From positions 20,318-84,317 of the forward strand of contig CAWCMQ010000013.1 in the NCBI GenBank assembly GCA_963796645.1: DNA of 64,000 nucleotides, read 5' to 3'. Shown one piece after another: positions 9,714 to 20,497 of this stretch (its first letter is position 1; the number at the start of each line of letters is the position of its first letter). The stretch comes from an uncultured Solirubrobacterales bacterium (GTDB lineage Bacteria > Actinomycetota > Thermoleophilia > Solirubrobacterales > Solirubrobacteraceae). The notes under the pieces were generated by a model. That model worked only from the letters and a program-made list of their open reading frames with translations. It had not been told where the DNA came from and ran no database searches. The translations under genes and the position numbers were made by a program.

Positions 9714-11201
9714 ATGGTCGAGCATTCCGAGGGTCGGGACATCGACGCGGCCGGCAGCGACCGTCTCACCGCCCGCCGCCGTCGCGCAGATGCCGAGCAG
9801 AACTTCAGCCGCATCATCGAGGCAGCGGTCGAGCTCTTAGATCGCCACCCGGGCGCGAGCATCGAGCAGATCGCCGCGGCGGCCGGCGTCGGACGCGCGA
9901 CCGTCTACCGCCACTTCGCGACTCGCACCGCGTTGGTTGAAGCCGCGACGCGCCATGCGTTCGAGGACGCGCTCGTCAGCGTTTCCACGACCGAGGCGGA
10001 GGAGTCCAATGACGGCGGACCTGACCTGTTTGGCGTCGTCGAGCTGCTCAACCGTGTGCCGCCTCACCTAATCGGCGACCAGGTGGTCGCCGAGGCGCGG
10101 CGCCTCGCGGGTGTTTCATCGGCGGCGCTGTACGTCGTCGACATTGACGGGTCACGGCTGCTGCGGTTCGCGGGGTCCGAGGAGTTCCCCGCCGAGCTCC
10201 ACGCCCCCTTGGCCGTGGGTCCGGAGCTTCCCCGAGACGGAATCCCGAGCTTGCGCCGCCTCGTCGCCGAACAGCTGCCCGGCACGGTCGCCGCGCCGCT
10301 CTACCTCCGCGGTCGAGCGATCGGGCTACTGCTGGCGGTCGGGGCCAGCGAAAGCTCGCTCGACAATCTCGCGCGTCAGGCCGCCGCGGCCATCAACCTG
10401 GCCGAGAGCTATACGGACGTGTTCGCATTGAGCCGACGTCGTAAACCAATCAGCGCAGCCGCGGAGATACAACAGAACCTACTGCCGCCGCGGGTGGTGC
10501 AGATGTCGGGCGCGGCGGTCGCCGGCACCGTGTTGCCCAGCTATGACGTAGGTGGCGACTGGTTTGACTATGCAGAGAACTCGGACGGCGCCTGGATCGG
10601 TGTCGCCGACGCGACCGGCAAAGGCGCCTCCGCGGCGAGCCTCAGCGCACTCGCGCTGGGAGCCTTCAGAGCCGCCCGGCGGAGCGGCGCGAACCTCGAA
10701 CAGGCGGTCAGCGCCATGGACGATGCGGTCAGCTCGATCAACGAAGGTGGAGCAGTCGTCACCGCCATCATCGGCCGCTGGCACGGGCCCACCGCGACCT
10801 TCGCATGGATCAACTGCGGACATCCCGCTCCCGTGCTCATCACGGCCGACGGAGAACTACACGCGCTTGACGACGGCCGTGGAAGGGCCCTGGGAGCGTC
10901 GGACAACGGACGGGAATGGAGCACCAGCACGGCACGCCTCCAAACGGGGCAACGACTCATTCTCTATTGCGACGGCGTCACCGAGCGACCCGATCAGGGT
11001 GGGACCGAATTCGGACTCGGCGGCATCAAGAACGCGGCCGCTCAAGCTCGCAGCGACTCCGCCCCCGCGACCGCCAAGGCGATCGGGGATGCCGTATCCG
11101 CCGCGTCTGCCGAGCCCCTTGAGGACGACGCGACGATCGTCGTGCTTGTGCCTACAAGCGGCACGGCGGCGTCCGAGTGGGATGGGCGAGAGCGCCGGTG
11201 A
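9714..11201 (+). CDS. TetR-HTH fused to GAF-like linker and SpoIIE/PP2C (RsbU-like) phosphatase
   Basis: N-terminal RADAEQNFSRIIEAA...IAAAAGVGRATVYRHF. PP2C motifs EIQQNLLP, VGGDWFD, VADATGKG, NCGHP, LYCDGVTE, DDATIVV. Confidence 0.9.
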   Translation: MVEHSEGRDIDAAGSDRLTARRRRADAEQNFSRIIEAAVELLDRHPGASIEQIAAAAGVGRATVYRHFATRTALVEAATRHAFEDALVSVSTTEAEESNDGGPDLFGVVELLNRVPPHLIGDQVVAEARRLAGVSSAALYVVDIDGSRLLRFAGSEEFPAELHAPLAVGPELPRDGIPSLRRLVAEQLPGTVAAPLYLRGRAIGLLLAVGASESSLDNLARQAAAAINLAESYTDVFALSRRRKPISAAAEIQQNLLPPRVVQMSGAAVAGTVLPSYDVGGDWFDYAENSDGAWIGVADATGKGASAASLSALALGAFRAARRSGANLEQAVSAMDDAVSSINEGGAVVTAIIGRWHGPTATFAWINCGHPAPVLITADGELHALDDGRGRALGASDNGREWSTSTARLQTGQRLILYCDGVTERPDQGGTEFGLGGIKNAAAQARSDSAPATAKAIGDAVSAASAEPLEDDATIVVLVPTSGTAASEWDGRERR

Positions 11202-13641: not shown

Positions 13642-15246
13642 ATGAGGGTCTTCATTAACTATCGACGCGAGGACAGCGAGGCGTATGCGCGCCTGCTGCG
13701 CGACCGTTTGGCGGGCGTCTACGGCGCGGAGAGCGTGTTTCTGGACGTCGTCGATCTGACGCCGGGGCTCAGCTGGTTGGAGCAGATCAAGGCGAGCAGT
13801 ACCTCATGTGGCGCTTTTCTGGCCCTGATCGGACCGCGGTGGATGGCGACCATGACGGATCGGGCTCAGCGGCGCCTCGACGATGCGCCGGAGGACGTGG
13901 TCCGGCAGGAGATCGAGTTCGCGCTCAGCCGCGGATCTCAGGTTGAGGTCATTCCGCTCCTCGTCGGCGGCGCCCAGATGCCGAGCGGCGACGGTCTGGT
14001 CAGGTCGATTCGGCCGCTGACGTCGTTGCACGCCATCGAACTGCGCCACACCCACTTCGACACCGATCTTGAGCATCTGATTGAGACGCTCAACCGCATT
14101 CAGGAGCAGGTCGGGCCGGATCCGGGCAGATCAGCCGGACCCGCGCCGGGGGACGAAGATCCTGCTGGCCTCACCTCGGCTGGCGACCAGGAACCGGCCA
14201 CTCCTGCGATCTCTCGCCCACCGCGAGCGCCGGCGGCCGAGCCCACACCCGCCACCCCGCCGCCAGGCGCCGCGCCCTTGCCAGATCACGGGCATTTCGC
14301 AACCGTGCTCAGATATCTGCTCGATGACGATGGTCTCGTGCCTGTGCTCGGCCCCGACGTCAACTTCGCTCAGAGCGGCCAAACGGCCGCGAACGGCTCG
14401 GAGACCTTCCCCAATGCCCAGGAGCTCGCGATTGGGCTGTCCAACCGATTCGGCATAGAACCCGTTACCGACGACCTGGCCAAGGTGGCCCAGCAGGTGT
14501 TTCTCACCTGCGGTTCGCCTGACCTCTACCGAGGCCTCAAGCGCCTGCTATCGAGGGATGCAGAGCCCTCGGTCGTACACCGGTTCCTTGCCCAGTTCCC
14601 GCGTCGCCTGGAGGAGCTGGGCCTGCCGAGGCGCCGCCAGCTGATCGTTACGACCAACTACGACAACGCCCTCGAGCGTGCGTTCGATGATGCGAACGAG
14701 CCGTACGACGTCGCGGTGTACATGGCAAGCGGCATCGATCGCGGGCGCTTCGTCCATTTCCCCGTGGATGCCGATCCGGAGGTGATCACGGTTCCGAACC
14801 GTTACGGAAAGCTGCCGATCGACGAGTACGGCGAGGTTCAACGGTCACTGATCGTAAAGGTGCATGGAGCGGTCGACGGGAGCAGCGGTGGCTACCGCTG
14901 GAAGGACAACTACGTCATCACCGAGGACCAGTACATCGACTACCTGAGCCACAGTCCGGTCGAGAGGCTGGTTCCGATCCAGATCCTCGACAAGCTCACC
15001 TCCGCCCACTGCCTGTTCCTGGGGTACTCGATGCACGACTGGAACCTCCGGGTGTTCCTCAAGCGCATCTGGGGGGGCGCTCCGATCCCAGCCAAGTCGT
15101 GGGCGATCGAGCGCGACCCAGAGAGCATGGAGAGCGACTTCTGGCGCCACTCCGGCGTCGATCTGCTTGCGGCGCCGCTGGCCGATTACGTGCAACAGCT
15201 GGCCGAGCAGATGAGACTCGAGTCCGGCACAGCCGGTAGCGCGTGA
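13642..15246 (+). CDS. TIR domain + Pro-rich linker + SIR2-like (SIR2_2) domain fusion
   Basis: TIR: VFINYRREDS, VFLD, ALIGPRW, VVRQEIEFAL (putative catalytic Glu). SIR2: VPVLGPDVN, IVTTNYD, VKVHG, VITEDQY, LFLGYSMHDWN. Confidence 0.88.
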   Translation: MRVFINYRREDSEAYARLLRDRLAGVYGAESVFLDVVDLTPGLSWLEQIKASSTSCGAFLALIGPRWMATMTDRAQRRLDDAPEDVVRQEIEFALSRGSQVEVIPLLVGGAQMPSGDGLVRSIRPLTSLHAIELRHTHFDTDLEHLIETLNRIQEQVGPDPGRSAGPAPGDEDPAGLTSAGDQEPATPAISRPPRAPAAEPTPATPPPGAAPLPDHGHFATVLRYLLDDDGLVPVLGPDVNFAQSGQTAANGSETFPNAQELAIGLSNRFGIEPVTDDLAKVAQQVFLTCGSPDLYRGLKRLLSRDAEPSVVHRFLAQFPRRLEELGLPRRRQLIVTTNYDNALERAFDDANEPYDVAVYMASGIDRGRFVHFPVDADPEVITVPNRYGKLPIDEYGEVQRSLIVKVHGAVDGSSGGYRWKDNYVITEDQYIDYLSHSPVERLVPIQILDKLTSAHCLFLGYSMHDWNLRVFLKRIWGGAPIPAKSWAIERDPESMESDFWRHSGVDLLAAPLADYVQQLAEQMRLESGTAGSA

Positions 15247-18200
15247 CCGACGATCGAGTCGATCCGAGGCTCGCCATCCCAGCCTCGCCGTACGTCGGCC
15301 TCGGCTACTACACCGAGGAGCGAGCGAACGTGTTCTTTGGGCGGGACGCCGAGCGCAAGGTGATCCTCACCAACCTCAGGGCCACACGACTCACGCTCCT
15401 GTATGCGCAGAGCGGTGTGGGTAAGAGCTCGCTCCTGCGTGCCGGCGTGATGCCGGGGCTTCGCGAGGCCGCGCGCACGAACCTCGCCCGCCGGGGCCAT
15501 GCCACCCACATCCCCGTGCTGTTCAGCTCTTGGCGCGACGACCCGGTGGAGGAATTTCGGTCCGAGCTCCAGCACGCGGTCCGTGGGTTCTGGCCCGAGC
15601 GAGAACCACTGGACTTGCCGACAGGCCCCCTGTCCGACGCCTTCAGCCATGTGGCGAAGGCAACGAACGCCACGGTGCTCGTGATCCTCGACCAGTTCGA
15701 GGAGTACTTCCTGTATCGATCCGGAGAGCAACGACCCGGCCGGTTTGCGCAGGAGGTCGCCGACACGATCAACACCCCCGGCCTGCGAGCGAACTTTCTG
15801 ATCGCCGTGCGGGAGGACGCGTACGCGGGGCTTGGGGACACGTTCGGAAGCCACCTCGCGAACGTCTACGGCAACTACCTGCACCTGGAGTACCTCGACC
15901 GCGACGCGGCGCGGCAGGCGATCGCCGGCCCGATCGAGCACGTCGACCTCGGTCAGTCGCCTGGCGATGCGGTGGACATCGAACCTGAACTGATCGATGC
16001 GGTCCTTGACCAGGTGCGGACCGGCCAGGTGGTTTTCGAGCAGGCGGGCAAGGGAGCTGTGTCCGGCCCCAACGGGGCCTCTCCGTCGGTCGATGAGATC
16101 GAAACTCCGTATCTGCAGCTCGTGATGACAACCCTCTGGAAGGCCGAGCTCGGTGCCGGGTCTCATACGCTTCGACGATCGACGCTGGAGCGTCTCGGTG
16201 GCGCCCAGGAGATCGTCCGCACGCATTTGGACCACGCGCTCGGGGTCCTGTCGGACGAGCAGCGCGAGCTCGCGGTCGACATCTTCGACCACCTGGTCAC
16301 TCCGTCGGGGACGAAGGTCGTGCACCGAGTCTCGGACCTGGCCGCGTACAGCGGCCGAGATCCTGCGGAGGTCGAGGCGCTGGTGGAGCGGCTGGCCGGG
16401 GGTGGGCAACGGATCCTGCGTCCGGTTCCGGCGCCTCCGGGAGAGGATGGGCCGCCGCGGGTGGAGATCTTCCACGACGTTCTCGCGCCGGCAATCCTGG
16501 CCTGGCGCACGGCGCAGACCGCCGAGCGTCTCCGGCGAGAGAAGCAGGAGGCCGAGCGCGAAGCAGCGTCCCAGCGACGGCGAGCCCGAACCTTCAGAGC
16601 GATCGCCGCCGTTGTGTCGGCGCTGCTAATAGCCGCAATCGCCGCGGTGGTCGTCGGCGAGGCGATTCGCGCTCGTAACGCGCAGCATGTGGCCCAATCG
16701 CGACTACTCGCCTCGCAGGCAGGTACCGATTTCCAGCTCGGGAAGCTCGACCGCGGTGTGCTCCTCAGCATCGAGGCATACAGAACCGTCCAGACCGCGG
16801 AGGCACGCGGCGCACTCGCGCAGGGGCTGTATCGAACTCAGGGGATGGTGGCGTACTTCGCCGACCACACGGGTGCGGTGTCGAGCGTCTCCTTCAGCCC
16901 GGATGGCAGGACGATCGCGTCAGCGAGCGCCGATGACACCGTGACGCTGCGCGATATCGCGACGGGAACGCTCCTGCACACGCTGCGCGGTTACCGGGAC
17001 GTGGTCACAAGCGTTGCCTTCGCGCCCGACGGACGAACGCTCGCCACGGCCAGCCTCGATGGAACAGTCGGCCTGTGGAACGTCGCGACCGGCACGCGGA
17101 TCCTCACTCTGCACGACCACGCAGGTGGAGTATGGGACGTGGCCTTCGGCAAGAACGGAACACTGCTCGCGTCGGCCGGCGCCGACGGGACGGTGGTCCT
17201 CACAAACCCCTCGACAGGCCGGCGGATTCGAACGCTGCGAGGCCACGCAGGGGCCGTCTACGACGTTGCCTTCAATCCCGCCGGCACAAGCTTGGCGTCG
17301 GCGGGCGCGGACCACACGGTTCGGGTGTGGAACGTCGCGACAGGGCAGACGCTCCATACGTTGCGCGGACACACCGGAGCGGTCAACAGCGTCGCCTTCG
17401 GGGCCGGAGGACGGACGCTCGCGACGGCCGGCGCCGATGGCACGATCCGGTTGTGGGATGCAGCGACCGGCCGCCCGCTACACATCCTGCGAGGCCACCG
17501 CGGGGCCGTGAACAGCGTCGTCTTCAGTCCCGGCGGCGACCTGCTGGCATCGGCCGGCAATGACCATCGAGTGGGACTGTGGAATGCGGCGACGGGGCAG
17601 CTCGTGCGCTTTCTCCCCGCCCAGGCACAGGTGATTGAGACCGTTGCCTTCAGCCCCGGCGGAGCGGTCGTCGCGTCCGGAGGAGCTGATGGTTCCGTCG
17701 TTCTGTGGACCGCGTCGCCGCCCACGCTGCACACCCTGAACGCTGGGCGCGCCGTACTGGATGTCGCGTTCAGCCCCGACGGTAGACAGCTCGCGTCGGC
17801 GACCGCCGGCGGCTTTGTCTTCACGTGGGACGCGGCAACCGGTCGGCCCATCCGGGAACTGGTCGCCCCCAGCGGGGACGCCGAGGCGGTCGCGTTCAGT
17901 CCCGACGGGAGAATGCTCGCCGCTGGGACCACCGGAGGGCGGCTCACGATCTGGGATCCGAACACGGGACGCGTGCTGCGGGTTCTGGCTCCCGGCGCCG
18001 GTGCGCTCTACAGCGTCGCGTTCAGCCCGGACGGCCAGATGCTCGCCGCCGCGAGCGCGGACGGTTCGGTGCTCCTTTGGGACGCCCGAACCGGGGTTCT
18101 TGCGCGCCGCCTGAGCGTCGACACCAGCCCGCTGTACACCGTCGCGTTCAGCCCTGACGGCAGGCTGCTCGCGTCGGCCGGCGCCGATGACGTTGTGACC

Positions 18201-18725
18201 CTCTGGGATTTACGAAGCGGCCGGCGCCGGAGCACCCTCAGCGGGCACCTGGGTGCCGTTGAGGCCCTCGCGTTCAATCCGACCGGGAACGAGCTGGCGT
18301 CGGGAAGCGATGACCACACGGTGATCCTCTGGAACGTGCGGACGGGCGATCAGCTGGGCGACCCGCTCCGCGGACATCAGGACGCCGTGGTCACTCTCGC
18401 GTTCGGCCCGGGCGGAAAGGCCCTGGTCTCGGGCAGTCGCGACGGTACGGTCTTCATCTGGGACGTCGCGGACCGTCTCGGAGTCCCACTTGGACCGTTC
18501 CCCGGAGCCGTCGACAGCGTTGCCCTGGGCTCGTCGCGTCCGGTGCTGGCGGTGGGAAGCTCCGACGGCACCGTGGCCCTGCTGAGCGCGATAGCGGCGC
18601 CGCCCACCGGCCGATCGGTCCAGGCCCGCCTGTGCAGCGTCGTCCGTCGAAGCCTCACGGGCCCCGAGTGGCACGAGTTTCTTCCCAACCGGAGCTACCG
18701 GCGGACCTGCCCGGGGTATGCGTGA
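15243..18725 (+). CDS. nSTAND1-type NTPase + TM helix + 14 WD40 repeats, no N-terminal effector domain
   Basis: SPYVGLGYY..FFGR, Walker A AQSGVGKSS, Walker B ILDQFEE, PYLQL, EIFHD, one hydrophobic helix, 14 counted WD repeats, C-terminal LC..RSLT.EW...Y..TCP. GTGA overlap with the upstream stop. Confidence 0.92.
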   Translation: MTDDRVDPRLAIPASPYVGLGYYTEERANVFFGRDAERKVILTNLRATRLTLLYAQSGVGKSSLLRAGVMPGLREAARTNLARRGHATHIPVLFSSWRDDPVEEFRSELQHAVRGFWPEREPLDLPTGPLSDAFSHVAKATNATVLVILDQFEEYFLYRSGEQRPGRFAQEVADTINTPGLRANFLIAVREDAYAGLGDTFGSHLANVYGNYLHLEYLDRDAARQAIAGPIEHVDLGQSPGDAVDIEPELIDAVLDQVRTGQVVFEQAGKGAVSGPNGASPSVDEIETPYLQLVMTTLWKAELGAGSHTLRRSTLERLGGAQEIVRTHLDHALGVLSDEQRELAVDIFDHLVTPSGTKVVHRVSDLAAYSGRDPAEVEALVERLAGGGQRILRPVPAPPGEDGPPRVEIFHDVLAPAILAWRTAQTAERLRREKQEAEREAASQRRRARTFRAIAAVVSALLIAAIAAVVVGEAIRARNAQHVAQSRLLASQAGTDFQLGKLDRGVLLSIEAYRTVQTAEARGALAQGLYRTQGMVAYFADHTGAVSSVSFSPDGRTIASASADDTVTLRDIATGTLLHTLRGYRDVVTSVAFAPDGRTLATASLDGTVGLWNVATGTRILTLHDHAGGVWDVAFGKNGTLLASAGADGTVVLTNPSTGRRIRTLRGHAGAVYDVAFNPAGTSLASAGADHTVRVWNVATGQTLHTLRGHTGAVNSVAFGAGGRTLATAGADGTIRLWDAATGRPLHILRGHRGAVNSVVFSPGGDLLASAGNDHRVGLWNAATGQLVRFLPAQAQVIETVAFSPGGAVVASGGADGSVVLWTASPPTLHTLNAGRAVLDVAFSPDGRQLASATAGGFVFTWDAATGRPIRELVAPSGDAEAVAFSPDGRMLAAGTTGGRLTIWDPNTGRVLRVLAPGAGALYSVAFSPDGQMLAAASADGSVLLWDARTGVLARRLSVDTSPLYTVAFSPDGRLLASAGADDVVTLWDLRSGRRRSTLSGHLGAVEALAFNPTGNELASGSDDHTVILWNVRTGDQLGDPLRGHQDAVVTLAFGPGGKALVSGSRDGTVFIWDVADRLGVPLGPFPGAVDSVALGSSRPVLAVGSSDGTVALLSAIAAPPTGRSVQARLCSVVRRSLTGPEWHEFLPNRSYRRTCPGYA

Positions 18726-18787
18726 GCGATTCGACTCGTTTCCATCGGCGAACCCGTTCCGTTACCGTGGCTGGGGCCGTGAGCAGG

Positions 18788-20497
18788 ATGCTGAGACGGG
18801 GCCTGGCATTTTCGCTGGTTGTTGCTGCAGCCGCGTTGGCCTGCAGCTCGGCCATGGCGGCGCGGGGCGCGCTCCCGTCGAGTTCTGTGCGGTCGGGATC
18901 GGCCTGGGACGAGGTTGCGCGAGGCGCGGTGCGGAGCGTGAAAAGGGCCGGTGCGGATGTGCCCGTTCAGCGCGTGGCGCGGGCCGGTAACGGATCACCC
19001 ATACAGGCGCCCGAGACGCAGAGCGTGAGCCAGCGCGGCACCGCGATGTCGTGGGCCCCTCCGGGTGGCGGACCCTCGGTTCGCGGCCCGGTGCGACGTC
19101 ACCGCAAGGCACCGACGGGTCAGACACGATCGACCGTGCATCGCTGCTTCACGAAGGGCGCGGGTCGGTGCAGCACGAGTGTCAGGAGCCTCCCGCAGCG
19201 GCCCTCGACCGTCGCGGTGACCGGAGCGAACGTACCGAGCCGAGGCGTTGTCGTGACAACGAGGATCTGTCTGCCGCCGCCATTGTCAGAGCCCGAGATC
19301 TGCACGACGACGACGACCACGATCATATGGTCCAGGCACCCGGATGGGGGTGCCACGCAGCGGACGGGGGCGCGGAGTTGCGAGTTCGGAAGCTGCGCGG
19401 CGTTGTCGCCACACGAGCAGCATCACGCGTTGGGTTGCGGGACCACGGCCACATCCTGCGTGCGGAGCGTGACCTGCCACTCGGTGGCCGATGGACGCGA
19501 AGCCCGTTGCACAATTGAGCTGGCTTCCCGGTTCGTCGTGTTCTGCACCTCGCCGGCAGGAGCGGATCCGAACAGCACTACCTGTCAAAACGTCGTCAAC
19601 TTCGTCTGCACAGATCCGCCCGGAGCGCTGCCAGCGAATTGCGCGGCCTCGCAGGCTGTACCCCCGAGATTGGAGCGCATCACGGTGTTGATCCTGGGCG
19701 TGGCGATTGCCGTCAAGCCGGTGTTTCAACCCGCGCCGAAGCGCGCACCATCCGGAGCTCCTGGTGGGCTCGCTCCCGTGACGTCCGGCGGCGGGGGGAC
19801 TCTGCGGTCCACACCGGTGAGGACTGCCGCTGGAACCGCATTTGCGTCGGCGGGATCTGCGACGACGATCACGCTGACCTCGTCCGCGAATCCGTCAGTG
19901 ACCGGACAGCGGGTGGCGTTGACCGCGCAACTCGCCCCCGTGCCCGCGGGAGGAACCGTCCGCTTCCTGATCGGCACCACCGTGATTCCCGGCTGCGGCG
20001 CGGTTACCGTGAACCCGTCGTCGGGCACCGCAGTGTGCGAGACGACATTCGCCACTGCCGGCGTGCCGCAGATCCAGGCGGTCTACTCGGGCGATGCCAC
20101 CGTCGCCGCCGCACAATCAGCCGTGCTGGGGCAAACCGTCGGGTGGAGCGTCCGCCTCGACGGACCGCCGGAGGGTCACGGGAAAGCGGCCGTGACCAGG
20201 CTCTCGTGTGCGCCCACGTCCGGTGGCTGTCGAGTGACCGTGCGCCTGCTGGCCAGTGGCTCGGCAGCCGCCGCGCTCAGCCCCTCGGCAGGAGGCCCGC
20301 ATCAGCCGGTCGTCGTGGGCAGTGAGACCCGCCCGATTGGAGCCGGGCAGTCGAGCACGCTCACGACGGCGCTCACGTCGGCAGCCCAGAAGCTCGCCGA
20401 GAGATCGGGAGGGCTTCCGGTCCAAGAGATCGTCGCGGTGACGATCGCCGGACGGCAACACACGGTCGCTTCCGAGAGACTGACGATCGCCTCCTGA
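18788..20497 (+). CDS. Secreted Cys-rich protein with bacterial Ig-like (group 3) domain
   Basis: Signal peptide MLRRGLAFSLVVAAAALACSSAMAA, Cys-dense middle region, Ig signature TLTSSANPSVTGQ.V.LTA...GTV.F...AVYSGD. Confidence 0.75.
   Translation: MLRRGLAFSLVVAAAALACSSAMAARGALPSSSVRSGSAWDEVARGAVRSVKRAGADVPVQRVARAGNGSPIQAPETQSVSQRGTAMSWAPPGGGPSVRGPVRRHRKAPTGQTRSTVHRCFTKGAGRCSTSVRSLPQRPSTVAVTGANVPSRGVVVTTRICLPPPLSEPEICTTTTTTIIWSRHPDGGATQRTGARSCEFGSCAALSPHEQHHALGCGTTATSCVRSVTCHSVADGREARCTIELASRFVVFCTSPAGADPNSTTCQNVVNFVCTDPPGALPANCAASQAVPPRLERITVLILGVAIAVKPVFQPAPKRAPSGAPGGLAPVTSGGGGTLRSTPVRTAAGTAFASAGSATTITLTSSANPSVTGQRVALTAQLAPVPAGGTVRFLIGTTVIPGCGAVTVNPSSGTAVCETTFATAGVPQIQAVYSGDATVAAAQSAVLGQTVGWSVRLDGPPEGHGKAAVTRLSCAPTSGGCRVTVRLLASGSAAAALSPSAGGPHQPVVVGSETRPIGAGQSSTLTTALTSAAQKLAERSGGLPVQEIVAVTIAGRQHTVASERLTIAS

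Follow-up and report, generated by a model that had tools for sequence, protein, structure and literature searches.

A widespread SIR2-nSTAND1 gene pair of soil bacteria with a predicted membrane-spanning WD40 sensor: a candidate STAND-type conflict module

The stretch of DNA analysed here, called the window, is 64,000 nt from the genome of an uncultured Solirubrobacterales bacterium (contig CAWCMQ010000013.1), and our subject is a pair of genes within it that encode a TIR-SIR2 protein (gene 1) and an nSTAND1-transmembrane-WD40 protein (gene 2). Positions 13642-18725 are taken up by these two open reading frames (ORFs), both on the same strand, which meet at ...gcGTGAcc..., where the GTG of gene 2 overlaps the TGA of gene 1. 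An earlier note on this DNA, made from the letters alone, had read gene 1 as a TIR domain, a Pro/Ala linker and a SIR2_2 domain with certain motifs. It had read gene 2 as overlapping the gene 1 stop by GTGA, starting at a STAND nucleoside triphosphatase (NTPase) without an effector domain, and continuing into one transmembrane (TM) helix and 14 WD40 repeats that form two 7-bladed propellers. Pfam matches and verification of the motifs confirm this layout for gene 1, as do the position of nSTAND1, hydrophobicity, repeat parsing and an AlphaFold2 (AF2) model for gene 2. The observations of the earlier note are thus confirmed, and its interpretation is partly supported. The features are collected in Table 1.

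The gene 1 protein begins with MRVFINYRRED, and its AF2 model has a mean predicted local distance difference test score (pLDDT) of 85.5. Pfam matches TIR_2 at aa 3-147 (E 2.3e-11, 44.7 bits; cut-off 28 bits) and SIR2_2 at aa 334-508 (E 3.2e-20, 73.1 bits; cut-off 24.5). The motifs present are DVVRQEIEFAL, which includes E90, VTTNYDN, which includes N339 and D341, VKVHGA, with H408, and FLGYS. The linker is matched by no Pfam family in the Pfam scan, and the family alignment shows that its length and sequence vary between homologues. There are more than 1331 homologues of gene 1 in the protein database, and TIR_2 and SIR2_2 are both present in 120/120 of those listed.

In the gene 2 protein, nSTAND1 (PF20703) is matched at aa 16-440 (E 4.8e-46, 158.6 bits; cut-off 27.1), with GVGKSS as Walker A (K61) and ILDQFEE as Walker B. 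Residues G58, G60, K61, S63, D150, Q151, F152 and E153 are invariant in two family alignments of the STAND. Since nSTAND1 begins at residue 16, gene 2 has no N-terminal effector or adaptor domain, and Pfam found no effector-associated domain (EAD) or Death-like adaptor domain in either protein. The sole hydrophobic helix is AIAAVVSALLIAAIAAVVVG, at aa 453-472. It is followed by a stalk that the Pfam scan assigns to no family and by exactly 14 WD40 units of ~42 aa each at aa 539-1124, as parsed from the repeats (Pfam E 1e-122; AF2 pLDDT >90). A tail of 36 aa ends the protein and holds its only two cysteines, C1131 and C1156. Its motif is C-x7-L-T-x2-E-W-x2-F-L-P-x4-Y-x2-T-C-P, the conserved sequence in the window protein is LCSVVRRSLTGPEWHEFLPNRSYRRTCP, and the Pfam scan again found no family. 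In the AF2 model (mean pLDDT 85.9), a module like a nucleotide-binding oligomerisation domain (NOD) is followed by a long helix (454-499) and two propellers, and two short helices close the C-terminus; the best full-length structural matches of this model are structures of Apaf-1 (Foldseek E ~1e-45).

Table 1. Parts of the gene pair and their positions in the window
Feature	Positions	Strand	Remarks
Gene 1, TIR-SIR2 partner protein, 534 aa	13642..15246	+	ATG start; TGA stop 15244-15246; ORF, Pfam, AF2
SARM1-like TIR domain, aa 1-157	13642..14112	+	PDB profile search, Foldseek; candidate catalytic Glu E90 = codon 13909-13911
Pro/Ala-rich disordered linker, aa 158-214	14113..14283	+	sequence; AF2 pLDDT <50 at aa 163-194
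SIR2_2 domain, aa 215-534	14284..15243	+	GPD at 14350-14358; N339 = 14656-14658; D341; H408 = 14863-14865
Gene 2, nSTAND1-TM-WD40 protein, 1160 aa	15243..18725	+	GTG start overlapping gene 1 stop (GTGA); AF2, Foldseek
nSTAND1 NTPase module, aa 16-440	15288..16562	+	Pfam PF20703; Walker A K61 = 15423-15425; Walker B ILDQFEE
Single transmembrane helix, aa 453-472	16599..16658	+	basic stretch RRRARTFR directly before; hydrophobicity; within AF2 helix 454-499
Helical stalk, TM helix to first propeller, aa 473-538	16659..16856	+	AF2 helices 454-499, 502-515, 519-531
14 WD40 blades, two 7-bladed propellers, aa 539-1124	16857..18614	+	repeat parsing; Pfam; predicted extracytoplasmic sensor
C-terminal tail with C1131 and C1156, then stop codon	18615..18725	+	conserved in most WD40-bearing relatives

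Relatives were collected from the side of each gene. The gene 1 profile found at least 391 matching stretches in a collection of one genome per prokaryotic species, and the best 80 loci were kept; a profile of the STAND domain alone found at least 535 relatives on metagenome contigs. By a tblastn script, an nSTAND1 gene is directly downstream of the SIR2 gene in 80/80 genome loci, and a SIR2 gene is directly upstream of the STAND in 75/75 of the kept metagenome loci with enough upstream DNA. Such recurrence places the two-gene arrangement far beyond chance. The pairing, tested from both genes, is present in 155/155 evaluable loci and is obligatory whichever gene one starts from. In 36/80 loci the start and stop codons could overlap as NTGA, and most others have a short gap. 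Pairwise distances of SIR2 and STAND are strongly correlated (Mantel r = 0.865, p = 0.001), from which it follows that the two genes are inherited as a unit. The claim that an effector-less STAND is paired with a separately encoded NAD-domain protein is borne out by these counts and this correlation, and conservation of the pair across genomes, which had been proposed as a check, is what was found. No conserved third gene emerged from clustering of the flanking ORFs of 81 loci, where the largest family has 12 loci and does not include the window.

Around this fixed pairing both proteins vary. By Pfam, gene 1 at variant loci encodes SIR2 only (~320 aa), TIR-SIR2, TIR-TIR-SIR2, CHAT-TIR-SIR2 or CHAT-TPR-SIR2. 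The part of gene 2 after the TM helix may be nothing at all (STAND and TM, ~470 aa), ~200 aa without a Pfam family, or 7, 14 or more than 21 WD40 blades. Because the other parts of both genes vary among loci, the constant core is SIR2 plus nSTAND1-TM.

Several of these variants deserve mention in their own right. At three loci (L026:5738-8512, L030:5855-8455 and L077:5492-7951) a CHAT (caspase-like) domain stands ahead of TIR-SIR2 or TPR-SIR2, so that up to three different death-type domains are possible in the partner protein. A minimal gene 2, consisting of nSTAND1 and TM with hardly any ectodomain (~470 aa), is present at L060:7897-9336, L079:7900-9309 and L069, where the partners are canonical SIR2-only proteins. 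Regions of ~200 aa after the TM helix, with 2-4 cysteines and no Pfam match, are found at L004:8524-10437, L063:7890-10064, L065:7945-9972 and L080:5151-7472, and these may be undescribed extracytoplasmic sensor domains. At seven loci from long-read metagenome-assembled genomes (MAGs), L010, L033, L042, L049, L056, L058 and L061, gene 2 is broken into short ORFs, which could be due to frameshift sequencing errors or could mark pseudogenes.

The position of the WD40 propellers relative to the membrane can be predicted from 69 gene 2 homologues. With a Kyte-Doolittle mean of at least 1.9 over 19 aa as the criterion for a TM segment, 69/69 have one such segment and no more. It is strongly hydrophobic (best 19-aa windows of 2.0-3.3) and always in the same place just after the NTPase. 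The 15 residues before the segment have more Lys and Arg than the 15 after it in 67/69 (means 6.2 vs 2.8). By the positive-inside rule, and because the NTPase must bind nucleotide, the NTPase is placed in the cytoplasm and the repeats outside. Cysteine counts after the TM segment are even in 54 and odd in 4 of the 58 proteins with any Cys there, and the 4 odd-Cys proteins look frameshifted; in the cytoplasmic part the counts are 24 even and 37 odd. The p-values for this parity (binomial p = 3e-12, Fisher p = 2e-10) overstate independence as the sequences are related, yet counts of 2, 4, 6 and 8 occur in different subclades. Even counts after the TM segment are the pattern expected of disulfide-bonded exported domains, and the Cys-Cys tail of gene 2 is probably disulfide-bonded. 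Gene 2 carries the sequence hallmarks of a type-II single-pass membrane protein with a predicted extracytoplasmic sensor, and we consider it likely that the WD40 sensor faces outward. The earlier note had called the sensor membrane-anchored. The membrane part of this description stands, and the idea of mere anchoring does not, since the prediction is that the protein passes through the membrane and that its WD40 domain lies outside the cytoplasm. This would change what the sensor could detect. The characterised bacterial sensors of the STAND/nucleotide-binding leucine-rich repeat receptor (NLR) type, namely Avs, bNACHT and relatives, all survey the cytoplasm.

What do the two NAD-related domains of gene 1 look like in comparison with known enzymes? 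The TIR of SARM1 is the top PDB match of the family profile (E 8e-7), and E90 is aligned with the Glu of SARM1 DWVHKEI, which we take to be E642, the catalytic residue. Foldseek gives a TM-score of 0.77-0.80 between the gene 1 TIR and the SARM1 TIR, and the Glu at the catalytic position is kept in 59/60 TIR domains of the family. A conserved catalytic Glu in a TIR fold is the mark of a SARM1-like TIR NADase, as which the domain is predicted here.

The SIR2 fold matches the defence NADases KomC, ThsA, DSR2 and SIR2-HerA (Foldseek E 1e-9 to 1e-7, 13-19% identity). In the window copy N339, D341 and H408 are retained, and the phosphate-loop position has GPD, as against GAG in SIR2-only relatives. 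Among the genome loci, GAG together with the TTNYD Asn/Asp and the His is present in 20/20 SIR2-only proteins vs 0/59 TIR-bearing ones, and in the metagenome set the figures for GAG plus N/D/H are 22/25 vs 0/23. Both sets together give a canonical GAG/N/D/H site in 42/45 SIR2-only proteins and 0/82 TIR-bearing proteins. The N, D and H of SIR2 are kept in 64/80 relatives, and the His or Asn is lost in 16/80 genome loci. Deviations in the TIR clade are heterogeneous and include GPG, GSG, GSR, GLD and GPD, or GAG kept with KDN, KDS or NDN. When 147 SIR2 modules are placed in a maximum-likelihood tree, those of TIR-bearing proteins fall into one clade (84/85 tips, support 1.0, two parsimony changes), which shows that the TIR was acquired once. 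As the clade arose once, decay of the SIR2 site would reflect constraint that has been relaxed and is still relaxing after the TIR gain, not many independent events, and we find continuing relaxed constraint to be the best reading of the deviations. The ancestral module was evidently a SIR2 effector, because the SIR2-only relatives keep a fully canonical site. With the GAG phosphate loop lost to GPD, the SIR2 of the window is most likely a coupling module or scaffold and not a second full-strength NADase. For the window copy as a whole we lean slightly towards a division of labour in which the TIR would be the effector and the SIR2 a scaffold, perhaps one still binding nucleotide.

Induced oligomerisation activates TIR or SIR2 effectors in SARM1, in plant TIR-type NLRs (TNLs) and in Avs-type STANDs. 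A comparable sequence of events can be proposed for the window pair. The nSTAND1 ATPase would lie in the cytoplasm, with one helix crossing the membrane and the stalk, the two WD40 propellers and the Cys-Cys tail outside. An extracytoplasmic ligand would bind the propellers, and the signal would pass via helix and stalk to the NTPase, which would exchange nucleotide and oligomerise at the inner face of the membrane. The gene 1 protein, co-translated stoichiometrically and docked via its SIR2 module, would be clustered as a result. The SIR2 is proposed as the docking module because it is the invariant partner of this STAND clade. Clustered SARM1-like TIR domains may then assemble composite active NADase sites, as happens in SARM1, in plant TNLs and in TIR-STAND proteins, and NAD+ would be consumed, leading to growth arrest or death or to an ADP-ribose (ADPR)-derived signal. 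In SIR2-only members the STAND would drive SIR2 switching instead, probably as in Avs5, whose SIR2 is activated by STAND-driven filamentation (PMC11897194).

We judge it a little better than an even chance that the overall picture is right, in which the two co-inherited genes form an NLR-like (STAND) module for conflict or immunity, with a membrane-crossing sensor. The fully specified version, a bacterial transmembrane NLR with an outside WD40 sensor, a STAND switch and a separate TIR NADase docked via a retired SIR2 domain, is offered tentatively and with somewhat less than even confidence.

Is the SIR2 domain really retired? The earlier note had proposed a dual TIR+SIR2 effector, activated in trans. 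That the effector is a separate partner is upheld, but two working NADases are probably not present, given that the TIR is a single later gain and the SIR2 pocket is degenerate. Were both domains active and released together by the STAND sensor, NAD+ would be destroyed redundantly or synergistically. Such an arrangement would fit the retention of N339, D341 and H408 in the window copy (N/D/H in 64/80 relatives), the match of the SIR2 fold to active defence NADases such as KomC, ThsA and DSR2, and the fully canonical sites of the SIR2-only relatives. However, the phosphate loop of the window is GPD, GAG with N/D/H occurs in 0/82 TIR-bearing proteins, and N and H have been lost outright in several of these (KDN, KDS), which suggests relaxed selection once the TIR was present. 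We regard dual activity as unlikely, but a serious contender. Alternatively, the TIR might make a cyclic ADPR-type signal that turns on the adjacent SIR2 domain, in the manner of Thoeris but in cis. Type I Thoeris has TIR and SIR2 as its two halves, and PADLOC gives weak matches to ThsB and to the SIR2 region of ThsA (E 7e-9). Yet no ligand-sensing domain, be it SLOG, Macro or another, is seen by Pfam or in the AF2 model, the NCBIfam Thoeris score is 18.8 bits vs a 220-bit cut-off, the SIR2-only members work without any TIR, and the SIR2 pocket decays in the members that bear one. Signalling of this type is therefore very improbable.

Other alternatives concern the sensor. The pair could be a non-immune transducer that senses the envelope or the environment (cell-wall damage, neighbour contact, development or dormancy) with NAD+ turnover as its cytoplasmic output. 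In keeping with this are the predicted extracytoplasmic position of the sensor, the lack of a defence-island signal, the absence of the module from the phages and plasmids searched, and a CHASE2-TIR receptor encoded by the same genome, a layout typical of environmental sensors. Such a role is harder to square with a distribution that is patchy even within the genus, with a SARM1-like TIR, which is a destructive output, and with the swapped death-type effectors (TIR, CHAT, SIR2) and freely varying sensor that are hallmarks of conflict systems (nSTAND1 systems, PMC8195603). We consider it rather unlikely. It is also conceivable that the hydrophobic helix is only a tether or oligomerisation helix, and that the WD40 domain lies in the cytoplasm and senses an intracellular (phage) protein as Apaf-1 and Avs do. 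The STAND sensors characterised in bacteria are all cytosolic (PMC13581612), the fold as a whole is like that of Apaf-1, and WD40 domains are mostly cytoplasmic. But the 20-aa hydrophobic segment is fixed in position and positive-inside in 67/69, cysteine counts are even after the TM segment only, and a single span puts the two halves of the protein on opposite sides while the NTPase needs cytoplasmic nucleotide. A cytoplasmic WD40 sensor thus appears quite improbable.

Returning to the transmembrane conflict module, we lean towards a conflict or immune role, with slightly more confidence than in the overall picture. The patchy distribution and the swapping of effectors and sensors would make the module an accessory one, as is typical of conflict systems. 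The host genome of 5.09 Mb has one copy of the module. Within the same genus a homologue is present in 3/24 other genomes, at 40-49% identity, and in 0/16 genomes from the rest of the order. The carriers among the best 80 loci are soil MAGs, mostly of Solirubrobacterales, with some Acidimicrobiia, Gaiellales, Acidobacteriota, Verrucomicrobiota, Chloroflexota and Gemmatimonadota. Divergence is faster in the WD40 region than in the STAND, with 45-48% vs 68-71% identity to the nearest relatives.

A number of results weigh against the module as we read it. The immune role, which the earlier note had also proposed, is something that we infer, and the genome setting lends it no defence-island signal. 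In the window the genes around the pair encode a TetR-PP2C fusion, a transporter of the YaaH family, a secreted Ig-like protein, a SHOCT protein, a desaturase and an acyl-CoA synthetase. At other loci the 119 nearest neighbours are heterogeneous, with 166 Pfam families of which none is found in more than 4 loci. A crude PADLOC census gave 25 families in the 119 neighbours vs 59 in 110 random genes of the host genome, a comparison weakened by the fact that PADLOC hidden Markov models match housekeeping kinases and ATPases freely. Neighbour hits are no higher than in the random-gene control and so lend no support to a defence island; some of the neighbours are genes of conflict type (patatin, caspase, IetA/IetS-like and DUF4231), and enrichment was not seen. 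No relatives were found in 72,556 plasmids, 50,697 phage records or IMG/VR. Tandem Repeats Finder detected no high-identity WD40 DNA repeats, homogenisation or hypervariability. As for the proposed mechanism, an internal signal-anchor would have to carry 14 WD40 blades out of the cytoplasm, which is plausible but unproven, the Cys-parity and charge statistics derive from related sequences, Pfam found no EAD or Death-like adaptor domain to explain how SIR2 docks on the STAND, and the window SIR2, which still has N, D and H, could be active. Repeat shuffling of the HET-E type was rejected, as high-identity WD40 DNA repeats are lacking. Searches with the flanking DNA within the genus returned only isolated genes on unrelated contigs, synteny being too eroded for an empty site to be seen.

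How does the pair relate to systems that have already been described? The closest relatives by NTPase are the nSTAND1 conflict systems (Kaur, Burroughs, Iyer and Aravind; eLife 2021, PMC8195603), which have the same NTPase family (PF20703, 158.6 bits), C-terminal superstructure-forming repeats as presumed sensor, TIR and caspase-type effectors, and enrichment in soil and filamentous lineages. In the systems described there, effectors are in cis or are coupled via EAD or Death-like adaptors (PMC8195603). Unlike these, the STAND of the window starts at the NTPase, its SIR2 partner is encoded upstream without an EAD, and a TM helix lies between NTPase and sensor. Coupling by an N-terminal effector or by a shared EAD or Death-like adaptor was rejected, with the NTPase running from residue 16 and no adaptor found. 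SIR2 is mentioned once in that paper, in a different EAD10/TPR/PIN system (PMC8195603), and the 2020 companion paper does not contain the term SIR2; the membrane-associated systems of the latter are the iSTAND ternary systems, the GAP1-N2 GTPase systems and 'System 4' (PMC7159879).

Avs/AVAST, notably Avs5 (SIR2-STAND) and the TIR-STAND variants, share with the pair the logic of a STAND joined to a NADase effector that is activated by oligomerisation or filamentation (PMC11897194; PMC13581612). Avs proteins are single cytosolic polypeptides whose mostly helical-repeat sensors bind phage proteins inside the cell, whereas in the window the effector is a separate protein, the WD40 sensor is predicted to be outside, and no PADLOC Avs model matches. 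Membership of Avs was rejected on account of the separate effector gene and the conserved TM helix between STAND and sensor. With Apaf-1 and the apoptosome, gene 2 shares a NOD module followed by two WD40 propellers and an effector recruited in trans (caspase-9 in Apaf-1); Apaf-1 is a soluble protein with an NB-ARC NTPase and a CARD adaptor, whereas gene 2 has nSTAND1, no adaptor and a TM helix. The gene 1 TIR is closest to the SARM1 TIR in both sequence and structure, with the catalytic Glu kept. In its layout the pair also resembles Toll-like receptors (TLRs), with repeats outside, one TM helix and a cytoplasmic TIR output. Unlike in TLRs, the TIR belongs to a second protein, a STAND ATPase comes between membrane and output, and the ectodomain, built of WD40 and not leucine-rich repeats, has no homology to that of TLRs.

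ThsA of type I Thoeris, DSR2, KomC of Kongming and SIR2-HerA have the same SIR2_2 fold, with the TTNYD Asn and the catalytic His at equivalent positions. The window pair differs from them in that it has no SLOG, HerA, KomA/B or long DSR sensor, and in its GPD loop and membrane STAND partner. Membership of DSR1/DSR2, SIR2-HerA, SPARSA or Kongming was rejected because the only conserved neighbour is nSTAND1-TM and the similarity is structural only, and membership of Thoeris because TIR and SIR2 are in one chain without a ligand-binding domain (Pfam, AF2). For gene 1, PADLOC returned only partial matches to ThsA-SIR2, PDC-S25 and ThsB, with those to ThsA covering part of the SIR2; for gene 2 it returned a HEAT-ARM_XIII match driven by WD40. 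No NCBIfam match came near the cut-offs for either gene. Membership of any catalogued system was rejected, given that the PADLOC matches are partial and the NCBIfam scores far below cut-off. A SIR2 gene with a transmembrane STAND is not described in a 2025 survey of TIR signalling, in a 2026 STAND survey and preprint, or in a 2026 ParA preprint. A search for TIR-SIR2 found no papers, and one for SIR2-STAND found the Avs5 papers and papers citing those. The view of the earlier note that this is no named system agrees with the lack of a system-level match in PADLOC or NCBIfam and of the pair in the literature searched. The pair is widespread in soil bacteria, with no description in that literature, in PADLOC or in NCBIfam, and we classify it as a variant of the STAND/NLR-like conflict systems that is unusual in its transmembrane topology and in the use of SIR2 as constant coupling module.

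If confirmed, the arrangement would add bacterial outside-in signalling to NLR biology and provide a tractable analogue of TLR-to-TIR/SARM1 signalling. It would be a prokaryotic counterpart of surface pattern-recognition receptors, able perhaps to sense an adsorbing phage, an attack on the envelope or foreign cells before cytoplasmic entry. It would also record the replacement of a SIR2 NADase by a TIR while the SIR2 was retained as an adaptor. The family offers a natural series for effector exchange, from SIR2-only through TIR-SIR2 with an intact-looking site and TIR-SIR2 with a dead site to CHAT-TIR-SIR2, and the series also shows how an old enzyme domain may become an adaptor. A clear prediction follows, in which E90 and K61 would be essential, while N339 and H408 would be dispensable for NAD+ loss in the window copy and essential in SIR2-only relatives. 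The family is large, with at least 391 genome stretches, at least 535 loci in metagenomes and over 1,300 partner proteins.

Two further genes of the window may be noted. Downstream of the pair, an ORF at 18632-20497 (+), whose start is probably later, near 18800, has a hydrophobic N-terminal segment, a Big_3_5 Ig-like domain and a moderate coding signal from GC content at third codon positions (GC3). It was rejected as a part of the system because no homologue stands beside other copies of the pair, and it is probably an unrelated secreted protein. At 9714-11201 (+) a protein of 495 aa joins, in an unusual combination, a TetR_N DNA-binding domain to a SpoIIE/PP2C phosphatase domain.

Elsewhere in the same genome, ~36 kb past the end of the window, a 1356-aa protein has the same design in cis (C13:120408-124478, equal to L093:408-4478 on the minus strand). 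It comprises TIR_2 at aa 5-123, nSTAND1 (326.7 bits), one TM helix at ~aa 594, WD40 repeats and a similar Cys...Cys tail, and its NTPase is too divergent to be detected by tblastn with that of gene 2. In a protein of 1054 aa (C1:41880-45044, equal to L094:880-4044, +), a TIR_2 domain at the N-terminus (99.9 bits) is followed by a single TM helix at ~aa 202 and by a long C-terminal region that resembles a beta-propeller, a topology in the style of Toll-like receptors without a STAND. About 4 kb from this gene, another transmembrane receptor with TIR output is encoded (C1:48978-50684, equal to L094:7978-9684, +), in which a CHASE2 extracytoplasmic sensor (149 bits) and TM segments are followed by a C-terminal TIR_2. 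Because TIR-nSTAND1-TM-WD40, TIR-TM-propeller and CHASE2-TIR proteins are encoded in addition to the pair, TIR outputs on transmembrane sensors are a theme in this genome.

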